DNA of 53,665 nucleotides, taken from the IMG/VR virus record IMGVR_UViG_3300043434_000453, positions 1 through 53,665 of that record. One strand, 5' to 3'. The stretch comes from a virus (Duplodnaviria; Caudoviricetes). The notes under the pieces are model-generated. The model searched no databases. It was given only the letters and a program-made list of their open reading frames with translations, and was not told the DNA's origin. A program made the position numbers and the translations under genes. Shown piece by piece: positions 40,289-44,806 of this stretch. The first letter of the stretch is position 1. Every line of letters starts with the position of its first letter.

Positions 40289-40506
40289 GCCTGATTAACT
40301 GGAAGCTATCAAACTGGAAGATCTGGAGTTGGAAACTCGGCTCGTGGAAGCAGGCGGCCGATGATGAGGAATACGAGTCTGTGCCCATCACGCGCGGGGG
40401 CGTATACCGGCGCGCGAGGATCGCGGCAGTGCTCCAGAAGATGGCCCGCCGACGTCGGCGCGACGAGGAGTCGATCATCTTGGCCATGATCACGAGGCCG
40501 CGATGA
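40285..40506 (+). CDS. Small protein with Trp-Lys repeats
   Basis: GTGA overlap; NWKLSNWKIWSWKLGSWK...RRRRDEESIIL. Confidence 0.6.
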   Translation: MSLINWKLSNWKIWSWKLGSWKQAADDEEYESVPITRGGVYRRARIAAVLQKMARRRRRDEESIILAMITRPR

Positions 40507-43500
40507 GTCTGGCCGCGCGCTTCACCATGGCCGACCTGGAAGCCCTGATCGGGGAAGGCCTGGACGCTACTTCTGAGGCAGACGAACACCAATTTTCCCA
40601 GCCGGCGGAAATTGTCGGCCCGGGAGGAATCCTGGAGTACTTCGACATCCCAACCGGGGATGCCTTCGACATCGCACCGGACGATGCGATCGCGCTGTTC
40701 AAGGTCAAGGGTCTGAAGCCCGCGTTCAGCTACGCCGACATGCTCGGCAAGGCCCACATGCAGTCCTTCACCGTGGCCAAGATGATGGACGTGGACATGC
40801 TCGGCCAGGTGCGGACAAGCCTGGAAGCGGCCATGGCCAATGGCACGCCATTCAAGGAGTGGTCGGACGGCCTGGTCCCCATGCTCCAGGGCTCCGGCTG
40901 GTGGGGTCGCAAGGAGATGGTCGACCCACTCACCGGGCAGACGATCATCGCGCAGCTTGGCAGCCCGCACCGGTTGGAGACGATCTTCCGGACCAACATG
41001 CAGACTGCTTACGCGCAGCAGCAGTGGGAGATGATCGACAGCCAGAAGGACATCGCGCCGTTCCTGATGTACGACGCCGTGGACGACTTCCGCACCAGGC
41101 CAGCCCACAAGGCCCGGGACAACACCATCCTGCCCGTCGATCATCCGTGGTGGGATCGCAATACGCCTCCACTGGGCTACAACTGCCGTTGCGGCGTCAT
41201 CCAGTTGACCAAGGACGAGCTCGACGCGCTGGGCAAACTGCCCAACACGAAGCCGCCGGCCCTGGGCGAGTACGAGTGGAAGAACCCGCGCACCGGGCAC
41301 ACGCACACTTTCCCCGATGGCATCGACCCTGGCTTCGACTACAACGCCGGCAAACTCGGCATGCAGCAGAAACTGGAGAAGATCCTCGCCGAGAAAATCC
41401 AGATTCTCCCGCCCGACATGCAGCGTGCGGTGAACAAGGCCCTGGCGAACGGCGCGAAGGACGTTGATGCCGCGATCGTCCAGGCGGCGAACGTCAAGAA
41501 GGCCAAGGAAGCCGGCAAGGCGGCATTGGAGCGCGCCCAGGCCATCGCCGCCGAGAAGGCGAAGGAAGCCGCGAAGCAGGCCCTGGCCACGCAGGAGCTC
41601 AAGAGCATCGCCGCCGGCCCGGACACCGGCGCCAACAAGTGGCTGAAGAAGGCCATGGAGTCCCTGTCGAAGATCAGTGGATGGAGCAACGGAACGCCGG
41701 CCGATCAACTGGGCGCGGTGAAGGGCAAGGCGGTGATCCTGGCCGAAAAGCAGAAACTGGCCAGCAACTTGTCCGGCTACAAGAAGAAGGTGCTCGCCGG
41801 CAAGACGCCCAGCCCGGCGCACAAGGCCGCGTTCGAATCCCTGTCTGATGCTGATCAGGACGCCTTCCTGAAGAAGATCGAGGCGGAAAAGGCCGCGATC
41901 GCCGCGAAGAAGGCGAAGGAGGAGGCGGAAGCACTCGCCGCCCAGGTCAAGGCCGATACCGAGAAGGTCGTCCAGGCCCAGGCCAAGGTGGTGGCCGGCT
42001 CTGCTCCAGATCCCAACGACCTGGTGCTGGTGGCCCGCAAGACGAAGGGCGCCAATGCTGGCGGCATCTACCAGGACACCACCACCGGCACACGCTGGAT
42101 GGTGAAGCACATGGCCAGCGAGGATGTGGCCCGCAACGAAGTCCTGACAGGCAAACTGTACGAACTGGCCGGCATGGATGTTCCCGAACTGCATTTCGGG
42201 AACATGGCCGGGAAGCCTTCAGTGTTCAGCCGCATGGTGGACGGGATCCGTGAGGTCGGCCCATCCGATATGGCGAAGGCCGCCGGCACCTTCGACGGGT
42301 TCGGCGTGGATGCCTGGCTGGCGAACTGGGACGTGGTCGGCCTGGACTTCGACAACCTGGTCCTGCACGGCTCCAAGGCGTTGCGTATCGACGTTGGCGG
42401 AGGCCTGCGCTACCGGGCAACAGGCGGGCTCAAGGGGCAGGCATTCGGCGACACCGTTGGCGAGCTCGACACCCTGCGCAACCCAGGCAACAACCCGAAA
42501 TCGGCCCAGGTGTTCGGCGGAATGAGCCAGGCGCAGATCGAGGCCTCCGTTCGGCGAGTGCTGGCCCTGGACGACAACGACATCCGCGCCGTGGTGGAAG
42601 CCTACGGGCCTATCGACCTGGCCGAGCGCAAGATGCTGGCCGATCGCCTCATTGCCCGACGGGCTGACCTGGCGCGCCGGTTCCCTGACGCGGCGGATCA
42701 AGGAAAGCCCGCGCCAGTCTCAGGCGCTGGTGCCAGGGTGACTGCCGAGGAGCAGGCGCTTGTCGAGGCCGCCAGGGTCAACGGCTTCGGGTTCAAGACG
42801 GACAAGGGCGACATCGAGGATCAGATGGTGGTGGTGAGCCTGTACGAGGATGCCGCCGGTGCTGGCATGACGCGCGGGTGGACGAAACTCCGGCCGGATG
42901 CAGCGAAGGGCCTCTACGAGCAGATCGCCAAGAACGCCGGCGTGGCGCCGCAGGTGGAACTTGGTGATGCGCGAGATTCCATCCTGCAAGCCATCAAGGG
43001 CATCAACCTGCGGGCCGGCAAGAGCGCCATCTACGAGCAGAAGGACGCGGATCGGCTTGTCGATGCCCTGGCCAAGTCCGACAAGGCGATCGCCGGTCTG
43101 AAGAAGGCCCTTGCCGAGGCCTCGCCGAAGAACCTGGTGCAACTCCAGCAGCAACTGGACATCTTCGAAGATTGGGCTGGCAAACTGCGCGCGGCCCAGC
43201 CCATCGTAAAGGTGGGAAACTCCGCTCAGCAGATCGCCGGCAAGTTCCCCAACGACATCGTCCCCGACGAGATCGCCTACGCGCTGGCGAAGCAGACGCA
43301 GCAGCAGGGCTTGGCGTGGAAGAAAGGCGGAGCGCAGATGGTGATGGATACCGCCGACATCACGAAAGCGCGGGCAAGGGCCAACGGCGGCAAGCAGGTT
43401 GTTCCAGGGGTGCGGGAGCACTACACCGCCGAGCTTACGGGCGGCGGCAAGGTGACGTTCATCCCGGACGTGGATCGGAACGAGGCCTATGCCATGCGCG

Positions 43501-44429: not shown

Positions 44430-44806
44430 TCGAGCAAGCCGTGAAGACATGGCGCGGCGCCGTGGTGACGCTCCAGCCGAAGGACGGGCGTGGCGCCATC
44501 ATCCGCCCGGCCGCGTTCCTGTTCGACCGCCCGGGCGGGTTCGCCTGGCTGGAGCCTGGCTATGCCGATCCGTGGGGATCCCCGTCACCGACCTGGCACG
44601 AAGTCGAGGCCAGCATCACCCGCGTTGCTTCGACCATCATCTACTTCGATGGCCCGGAATACTCTGGCGACATCGAGGAGTACTTCGGCCAGACCGATGC
44701 AGCCGGGCCACTGGAGTGGTTCGCCGGCTGGCTCAAGGAGCAGGGTCGGACCTGGGAGGAGGAGCGGGCCAGGGTGATTGCCGACGGCATCATTCCTGAA
44801 ATGTGA
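44426..44806 (+). CDS. Hypothetical protein, candidate immunity protein
   Basis: 126 aa; acidic and Trp-rich; GTGA overlap with the MuF stop. Confidence 0.6.
   Translation: MIEQAVKTWRGAVVTLQPKDGRGAIIRPAAFLFDRPGGFAWLEPGYADPWGSPSPTWHEVEASITRVASTIIYFDGPEYSGDIEEYFGQTDAAGPLEWFAGWLKEQGRTWEEERARVIADGIIPEM

Follow-up and report, generated by a model that had tools for sequence, protein, structure and literature searches.

The complete, linear genome held in IMG/VR as virus record IMGVR_UViG_3300043434_000453 (Duplodnaviria; Caudoviricetes; 53,665 bases, the whole of which is called the window in the following) carries a gene for a protein of 1308 residues. In this protein, a MuF head domain, a domain with the fold of protein kinases, and a C-terminal domain resembling ADP-ribosyltransferases (ARTs) are united in a single polypeptide encoded within the head module, which is the combination by which polyvalent proteins are recognised. 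The gene is followed, with overlapping stop and start codons, by a small gene for an acidic protein of 126 residues. We consider it probable that the large protein is a MuF-anchored polyvalent virion protein, i.e. a two-enzyme cargo packaged in the capsid, and that the small protein is its cognate inhibitor. The large gene is a single open frame of 1308 codons; GAGG lies upstream of its ATG, which overlaps the stop codon of an open reading frame (ORF) of 77 codons as ATGA. Five parts follow one another in the protein: the MuF head domain, an Ala/Lys-rich linker, the kinase-fold domain, a middle region of 376 residues, and the ART-like domain. The features concerned are the following:

40503-44429, plus strand: gene of the MuF-kinase-ART polyvalent protein, 1308 residues, stop codon included (from the ORF list and its translation)
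40626-41423, plus strand: MuF head-protein domain, residues ~42-307 (Pfam core 102-232)
41358-41999, plus strand: basic Ala/Lys-rich linker, residues 286-499 (23.8% Ala, 16.4% Lys, isoelectric point (pI) 9.6)
42000-42710, plus strand: atypical protein-kinase-like domain, residues 500-736
42711-43838, plus strand: conserved middle region of 376 residues, residues 737-1112
43839-44426, plus strand: DarT-like ADP-ribosyltransferase-fold domain, residues 1113-1308, with the candidate catalytic residues H1131, R1167, Y1188, and E1253
44414-44418, plus strand: GGAGG ribosome-binding site of the partner gene, 7 nt upstream of its GTG, inside the end of the large gene
44426-44806, plus strand: acidic partner gene, 126 residues, candidate ART inhibitor (immunity protein); GTG start, overlapping the upstream TGA as GTGA

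Two predicted enzyme-type folds behind a MuF head domain

The N-terminal part is recognised by several searches. The Pfam family Phage_Mu_F (PF04233) matches residues 102-232 (E 3.5e-18, 66.8 bits with a cut-off of 29.6), PHROG 220 ('minor head protein and DNA pilot') is matched with E 8.5e-81, and in tblastn residues ~42-318 align at 35-51% identity with MuF/head-morphogenesis proteins from phages, among them those of Stenotrophomonas, Xanthomonas, and Vibrio with 39-51%. A profile search of the linker against the PDB gave low-complexity matches only, and phmmer, run with the complete protein on PDB sequences, returned nothing beyond chance matches to antibodies.

The kinase-like domain was modelled with AlphaFold2 (residues 494-740, alignment of 56 rows), and the model has a predicted local distance difference test score (pLDDT) of 95.1 and a predicted template modelling score (pTM) of 0.91. 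With this model, Foldseek returned 196 PDB chains at E ≤ 0.001, all of them kinases among the matches listed, with CtkA of Helicobacter pylori at the top (E 2.9e-6); small-molecule kinases of the same fold, such as N-acetylhexosamine kinase and homoserine kinase, match as well. VIA-align, which is independent of Foldseek, likewise gave nothing other than kinases in its best 50 rows, including CtkA (Z 15.2, root-mean-square deviation (rmsd) 3.5, 207 of 247 residues aligned), PI4KII-alpha (Z 13.8), CotH (Z 13.5), Fam20 (Z 12.2), HipA (Z 11.6), MavQ (Z 11.4), and actin-fragmin kinase (Z 10.6). Among 166 copies of the domain, conservation is 90% or higher at each of the residues G516, G520, K535, E546, D603, D610, N618, and D630, which map to the glycine loop, the lysine of strand 3, the glutamate of helix C, the catalytic loop, and the metal-binding aspartate; in the model, K535 lies within a strand, E546 in the next helix, and D630 right after a strand pair. 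Judged by the motifs, the catalytic base may be either D603 or D610, the former being part of a D-x4-N-W motif which we take to be PI4KII-like.

The middle region and the C-terminal domain were modelled together (residues 737-1308, alignment of 84 rows) with pLDDT 94.4 and pTM 0.89, and in this model the C-terminal domain packs against the middle region, and the ART-like domain was searched as part of this 572-residue model. The middle region consists of a small alpha/beta subdomain (residues 737-811), a helical bundle, a beta-rich part (~920-1010), and further helices, and in at least 91% of 127 relatives it retains R758, G761, D767, E772, D773, and K795. Its structural matches are generic helical bundles (Z 8-9.4), and matches of this kind to residues 76-191 of the model took most rows of the structure search; in the ESM Atlas, residues 737-1100 had no usable match.

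The C-terminal domain points to DarT, a DNA-modifying ART. The only Foldseek rows of high probability are DarT structures, namely DarT1 (8baq; probability 0.94, E 0.05, template modelling score 0.50 by target) and Thermus DarT (probability 0.87), and in both VIA-align runs DarT entries are the sole non-helical rows, with Z scores of 7.5-8.0 and 145-158 residues aligned. These entries are Thermus DarT 7omx (Z 8.0, rmsd 3.7, 146 aligned), 7omw (Z 7.9), DarTG 7omu (Z 7.7-7.8), DarT1 8baq (Z 7.7, 158 of 208 aligned), 7omy (Z 7.6), and 7omv (Z 7.5). In the model, H1131 ends the strand 1127-1131, Y1188 starts the strand 1188-1195 after a conserved Gly-Gly, and E1253 starts the strand 1253-1257, which is how ARTs of the H-Y-E type are arranged. 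R1167, D1180, D1222, and E1253 are kept in 127 of 127 relatives, H1131 in 94%, and Y1188 in 92%. The corresponding residues of Escherichia coli DarT are H21, R57, FYFT76-79, and E170, to be compared with H1131, R1167, YFFT1188-1191, and E1253; the distance from His to Arg is 36 residues in both proteins and that from Arg to the aromatic motif 19 in E. coli DarT versus 21 in the window protein, the equivalence being one of spacing. In DarT enzymes, the catalytic Arg is located between His and Tyr (R51 in DarT2, R52 in DarT1), and for DarT2 it is described that this Arg abstracts a proton, that the Tyr is the Y of the H-Y-E triad, and that the Glu is catalytic (PMC11281641, PMC11543638). Searches of BFVD gave matches with weak scores only, to uncharacterised proteins of giant viruses, iridoviruses, and baculoviruses, which may be members of 'ORF28', a family related to DarT that PMC9503650 mentions.

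The original prediction, which had been made by reading the sequence, held up in most of these respects. Its motifs are all found in the places given, namely KGANAGGIY (515-523), WMVK (532-535), RNEV (544-547), NWDVVGLDFDNL (608-619), and RIDVGG (628-633) in the kinase-like domain and LVYHN (1128-1132), SYFFTRI (1187-1193), and DETIF (1252-1256) in the C-terminal one, and their conservation among relatives argues that they are not chance occurrences. Its MuF head domain and Lys/Ala linker are borne out by the Pfam match above the cut-off and by the linker composition, and its HipA/PI3-PI4K-like kinase came out of fold prediction and search as a domain of the CtkA/PI4KII/HipA kind. The H/Y/E block, which had been put forward as a weak ART call, models as an ART-like domain, with DarT proteins as the closest of the solved structures; with respect to the boundaries, the block itself stood, but the domain starts at ~1113, and the conserved middle region of 376 residues had been left unassigned.

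A number of results weigh against a two-enzyme cargo. Of the curated families, only HipA_C (PF07804) came near the kinase-like domain (residues 517-572 only; 14 bits and E 0.04 with a cut-off of 30.5), and since this match lies under the cut-off, the domain is a kinase-fold family outside the curated ones. In some relatives (P0123, P0148, P0147, and others), two to five kinase domains stand in tandem, P0123 with its 3416 residues having five; a plain enzyme would not usually have such copies, which could indicate pseudokinases or a function in binding. For the C-terminal domain, Foldseek with the 737-1308 model gave no PDB match at E ≤ 0.001, and the VIA-align scores for DarT are middling, the tool itself noting that Z below 8 can mean a common arrangement. 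Pfam has no match to the C-terminal domain of the window protein and assigned none of 70 C-terminal domains of relatives to a family, the best ART match being DarT in one of the 70 with E 0.15. Among PDB sequences, neither the profile of the full-length family nor that of the C-terminal domain found more than low-complexity or chance matches. Finally, hhalign gave a probability of 0.45% with a DarT alignment of 34 sequences, which is low in diversity (at least 65% identity to its first sequence); that alignment pairs E1253 with E170 of DarT, a pairing not counted as support at this probability. Because no sequence method links the C-terminal domain to DarT or any other ART, it appears from the model to be an uncatalogued ART-like family, DarT-like in fold and motif and not a member of the DarT family.

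These results allow two further interpretations. The C-terminal domain could be another enzyme or a binding domain whose fold resembles DarT, with the kinase as the only catalytic cargo. The missing link at the sequence level, the middling Z of 7.5-8.0, and the lack of a PDB match in Foldseek at E ≤ 0.001 fit such a domain, whereas the conservation of H, R, Y, and E at DarT-like spacing with H, Y, and E at strand ends, the position of DarT entries as the only non-helical structural matches, and the replacement of the domain by recognised ARTs in kinase-bearing relatives (see below) speak for an ART; we regard the non-ART interpretation as very unlikely. Alternatively, the cargo could be mainly structural or mechanical, i.e. 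an ejection or 'DNA pilot' protein with non-catalytic binding scaffolds, for which the small protein would be an assembly chaperone. The label of PHROG 220, the basic character of linker and C-terminal domain (pI 9.6 and 9.2), and the tandem kinase-like repeats of relatives are in line with this, as is a large polyvalent protein that virions of phage phi24B contain and for which a role in ejection was proposed (bioRxiv 10.64898/2026.04.10.717836). However, the PHROG match covers residues 48-489 and not the cargo, conservation in both domains is highest at the residues relevant for catalysis, and Pfam-recognised ARTs fill the same slot in relatives; a mainly structural role is highly improbable in our view.

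Relatives of the kinase-to-ART unit and its small partner

A scan of 1.84 billion representative proteins with residues 500-1308 gave 4548 relatives at E ≤ 0.001, 1059 of them at E ≤ 1e-30. Among the best 150 of the 4548, 100 contain kinase, middle region, and C-terminal domain, 28 kinase and C-terminal domain, 19 the kinase only, and 3 no kinase; both enzymes are thus present in 128. The C-terminal domain finishes at most 16 residues from the protein end in 126 of 131 relatives. All four long relatives scanned start with MuF, and between MuF and the kinase-to-ART unit there is a Zeta-toxin domain in two, NUDIX plus HINT/intein in one, and no Pfam-recognised module in one. The original prediction had proposed looking for a C-terminus that is swapped among relatives together with the downstream gene. 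Within this family, the C-terminal 180 residues do not appear to be a swapped polymorphic tip; this reading was rejected because the whole unit of about 800 residues, from the kinase through the middle region to the ART, is conserved as a block.

What does change is the class of the ART. Fourteen of the 19 kinase-only relatives were scanned for ART families (the remaining five were longer proteins), and 12 of them have a match at E ≤ 0.01, in seven cases above the curated cut-off (ADPrib_exo_Tox, NAD:arginine ART, or Scabin-like) and in five under it (DRAT or ADPrib_exo_Tox), while two have none. Therefore, a bona fide ART occupies the same slot in these proteins, and the kinase family nearly always rides with an ART whose class is exchangeable. 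A relative of 1383 residues (P0150) combines two kinase copies with a Scabin-like, i.e. guanine-targeting, ART and a self-cleaving Peptidase C80 domain and has no MuF match, which suggests that the kinase-ART pairing exists outside the MuF context.

The almost constant company of the kinase with an ART of the DarT-like, exoenzyme/arginine-ART, Scabin-like, or DRAT-like type suggests that the two could form an obligate working pair acting on one target in sequence, which with a DarT-like ART could be host or rival DNA. Possibly, the kinase phosphorylates the ADP-ribosyl adduct or makes a phosphate acceptor, which would protect the mark from removal by host hydrolases; alternatively, it could turn the ART on after ejection. 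We hold an obligate pair to be distinctly unlikely.

In isolated phages, the kinase domain is found in large proteins of phages of ~86-95 kb. At E ≤ 1e-5, residues 737-1308 have a single match among 50,697 GenBank phage records, in Pseudanabaena phage Pan1, and no match among 72,556 plasmids. The MuF protein of Pan1 has no kinase and keeps the module, and the downstream gene of 110 residues is a homologue of the window's partner gene (hhalign probability 96.9%, E 2e-10). In its region 2132-6942, Aeromonas phage ST4 (90.6 kb) encodes a protein of 1177 residues annotated as ADP-ribosyltransferase, which contains the kinase and, at its end, a weak exoenzyme-type ART match under the cut-off; the gene that follows is unrelated to the partner (hhalign probability 0.3%). 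These two phages, one case each, suggest by sequence comparison that the partner travels with the DarT-like module and not with the kinase. With regard to the co-variation of C-terminus and downstream gene that the original prediction had asked about, the unit is conserved in 128 among the best 150 relatives, the ART class changes across kinase-bearing relatives, and, in single cases, the downstream gene is unrelated in ST4 and both are kept in Pan1. The ST4 gene is followed by a gene of 165 residues of unknown function and then by a NUDIX hydrolase gene; NUDIX domains also occur inside long relatives of the window protein.

The partner gene of the window, which had been described before as a 126-residue acidic gene overlapping the stop codon as GTGA and is read as such in the sequence, encodes a protein with a pI of 4.5 (20 Asp plus Glu, 11 Lys plus Arg). 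It has 17 homologues at 37-73% identity, no match in Pfam or PHROG, and no usable match in the ESM Atlas, whose own model of the protein has a pLDDT of 0.38. An identification as a Mu gpG-like protein, suggested by gene order, was rejected because it is supported by no family match.

The gene neighbourhood was followed in 80 IMG/VR loci encoding the module, of which four, where the match stopped before the C-terminal end, were dropped. In 75 of the remaining 76, a small ORF of 60-175 codons (median 124) follows the module, starting between -40 and +300 nt from the stop codon, and in the one exception only 153 nt of the contig remain. The small ORF overlaps the stop codon of the module in 51 of the 75 and starts within 15 nt in nine more. 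Starting from the window's partner, jackhmmer reaches 44 of the 75, searches seeded with six further ones bring in at least 27 family members, and three more are linked through those six, the E-values being relative to a small sequence set and to that extent lending the family less weight; a cluster of 11 is linked marginally only, and 11 are without link. In the partner family, H58 is nearly invariant, and an E-P-x-Y-x-D-P loop is conserved.

When residues 737-1308 and the partner were co-folded, each as its own alignment, the predicted complex had an interaction score (ipSAE) of 0.82 (runs 0.82, 0.80, 0.84), the best of three controls reaching 0.00. This score is the model's own confidence, and in the calibration 58 of 80 solved complexes and 2 of 110 mismatched pairs attained the mark, counts that hold roughly with the custom alignments used, so that both points reduce what the score can carry. 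The partner has a pLDDT of at least 90 in the complex, and at least 97% of the contacts are common to the runs. Its loop 42-59 is placed in a cleft lined by residues 1133-1143, 1159-1162, 1173-1180 (with D1180), Y1188-F1190, D1222, S1251, and E1253, and contacts are also predicted with the helical bundle of the middle region (residues 825-847). The predicted complex supports binding of the partner and fits occlusion of the active site. As for the neutralisation of the ART proposed in the original prediction, the conservation of the partner with the ART module and its predicted position in the active-site cleft agree with the proposal, and the neutralisation itself is a probable consequence of such a position.

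A partner of this kind would also be expected if the two genes formed an interbacterial or superinfection MuF polymorphic toxin-immunity pair, in which the ART, with or without the kinase, would kill or arrest cells lacking the immunity protein, to the benefit of the lysogen or in phage competition and not for host takeover. The layout, with MuF, a C-terminal enzyme, and a downstream ORF of fewer than 150 residues, is that of MuF toxins (PMC5576092), the phage is temperate and has an integrase, the partner is predicted to occlude the active site, and Bxa and Apk2, two MuF toxins that act against bacteria, are counteracted by immunity proteins from neighbouring genes (PMC11699363). However, the 800-residue unit is conserved as a block, with both enzymes in 128 among the best 150 relatives, and the partner is one co-inherited family and not one of many cassettes. 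Moreover, the partner is probably not made in the lysogen because it is translationally coupled to a late head gene. A toxin-immunity pair is unlikely in our view, and we retain the capsid-packaged cargo with its inhibitor as the preferred reading.

Genome context

Further genes and gene groups of the window are as follows:

1651-12991: tape measure and tail genes
13548-14516: tyrosine integrase
23358-25016, 25515-26453, and 30884-32200, plus strand: three DNA methyltransferases
32573-34135: large terminase
33991-36042: Mu-type portal
36105-40288, plus strand: three genes (763, 457, and 168 residues) without Pfam or PHROG match
40273-40506, plus strand: ORF of 77 codons rich in Trp/Lys and Arg, its stop codon overlapping the MuF start as ATGA
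45031-45098, minus strand: tRNA-like gene with a CAU anticodon loop (Rfam RF00005, 43.7 bits)
45090-47328, minus strand: seven small ORFs
48585-49688: head protease
50383-51336: major head protein

The phage is a siphovirus with a Mu-like head module, and the integrase at 13548-14516 indicates that it is temperate. The MuF gene is placed within this module, having terminase and portal upstream and the protease and major head genes downstream. The portal gene of Mu-like phages normally has the MuF gene as its neighbour; in the window, 4.4 kb of unassigned genes lie between the two. The ORF of 77 codons in front of the MuF gene may be either a coupled small gene or a chance frame. The seven small minus-strand ORFs interrupt the head module, lying after the MuF operon and before the protease gene, and their only Pfam hints, a YdaS-like helix-turn-helix and a SWIM zinc finger, are weak and under the cut-offs. 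The tRNA-like gene, which ARAGORN does not call, is located directly beyond the partner gene and borders this cluster. Of the methyltransferase genes, one contains DUF4942 and one is fused to a ParB-like domain.

Proposed mechanism and comparison with known systems

By what is known of SPP1 gp7 and Mu gpF, the MuF domain would take the protein into the procapsid beside the portal, with the long basic Ala/Lys linker tethering a cargo of 800 residues composed of an atypical kinase of the CtkA/PI4KII/HipA kind, the middle region, and an ART of the H-Y-E class most like DarT. The cargo would be produced late in infection together with the translationally coupled acidic protein of 126 residues, whose conserved loop E43-H58 would occupy the NAD/substrate cleft and keep the ART silent in the producing cell. 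On infection, the cargo would exit the capsid with the DNA and modify targets in the host, the ART acting on nucleic acid or protein and the kinase on proteins or another hydroxyl acceptor. The Arg resembling that of DarT and the basic pI of the C-terminal domain (9.2) favour a nucleic-acid acceptor for the ART; by analogy with T4 Alt, a protein target is equally open. The original prediction had assumed a two-enzyme effector that modifies host proteins; the models support the two enzyme-type folds, but host proteins as target are not established because the nearest ART relatives modify DNA bases.

Phages inject enzymes with their DNA, and few such cargoes have been studied at the bench (e.g. 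Bxa, Apk2, and, as cited in PMC5512222, T4 Alt and P1 Dar). The cargo described here is very common in uncultured phages and nearly absent from isolated ones, and neither of the two enzyme families combined in it is recognised by any curated library. If the ART works like DarT, the phage would turn bacterial anti-phage chemistry on its host. The near-constant pairing of kinase and ART is a testable lead on the cooperation of the two activities, and if they form an obligate pair with a DarT-like ART acting on DNA, a new two-step modification of nucleic acid would be delivered from a phage capsid. The small partner would provide a ready-made specific inhibitor for bench work.

Polyvalent proteins were described by Iyer, Burroughs, Anand, de Souza, and Aravind in 2017 as MuF-led, virion-associated multidomain proteins that are predicted to be packed in the head and injected, and ARTs and kinases are common modules of them (PMC5512222). 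The window protein is of the same kind in that it is MuF-led and carries enzymes that modify proteins or nucleic acids, and its relatives contain Zeta-toxin, NUDIX, and intein/HINT domains. The ART described in that paper has an H-Y-D active site (Tox-ART-HYD2 clade), whereas the window domain is H-Y-E and resembles DarT. The kinase of PMC5512222, found mainly in the Verrucomicrobia-Chlamydia group and Bacteroidetes, uses His...Asp as its catalytic pair and no longer has the C-terminal subdomain; going by this description, the window kinase with D-x4-N-W-D and a helical C-terminal part looks different. Its best structural matches, CtkA, PI4KII-alpha, CotH, Fam20, and HipA (Z 15.2 to 11.6), share no more than 11-15% sequence identity with it. 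CtkA of H. pylori (PDB 3akj/3akl) is a Ser/Thr kinase whose gene resides on tfs3, a mobile integrative and conjugative element (PMC5536186).

MuF polymorphic toxins (Jamet et al. 2017, PMC5576092) are similar in their MuF N-terminus, C-terminal toxin-type domain, downstream ORF of fewer than 150 residues, and occurrence in temperate phages; the word kinase does not occur in that paper. For each of two such toxins, Bxa and Apk2, a small immunity protein is described that acts by blocking the active site (PMC11699363). For Bxa, which is reported to be an arginine-modifying ART, the non-enzymatic immunity protein Bsi was modelled in the ART active site, as is now predicted for the 126-residue partner, and a second, enzymatic immunity protein, BAH, is described (PMC11699363); no hydrolase gene was found beside the window gene. 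In contrast to Bxa and Apk2, the window protein fuses two enzymes, and within its family the whole unit is conserved and not polymorphic.

DarT toxins (DarT1/DarT2, DarTG, PF14487) provide the nearest solved folds for the C-terminal domain, with H, R, Y/F-F-T, and E in the same order and at nearly the same spacing, and DarT is also neutralised by the product of a cognate neighbour gene. The window domain differs in having no detectable sequence homology to DarT, in being fused to ~1100 residues, whereas DarT stands alone with ~210 residues, and in a Tyr-to-Glu region of 65 residues compared to 93 in E. coli DarT. Furthermore, the DarT antitoxin is a macrodomain that removes ADP-ribose (DarG) or a NADAR protein, while the window partner has 126 residues and is predicted to block the site. 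Among the enzymes of well-known phages, T4 Alt is an injected ART and T7 has a protein kinase, both of which act on host proteins in the early phase of infection (as cited in PMC5512222). Each is a functional precedent for one half of the cargo, but the two are separate proteins from different phages and from other ART and kinase families, are not fused to MuF, and are not known to have a cognate inhibitor gene. We found no bench or computational study of a pair of kinase and DarT-like ART, which may be listed in the supplements of the comparative papers of 2017 and 2022. The concept as such is already published for polyvalent proteins (PMC5512222) and MuF toxins (PMC5576092), and compared with these, the new points that can be put to most use are the rule by which kinase and ART are paired and the tie of the partner to the ART module.

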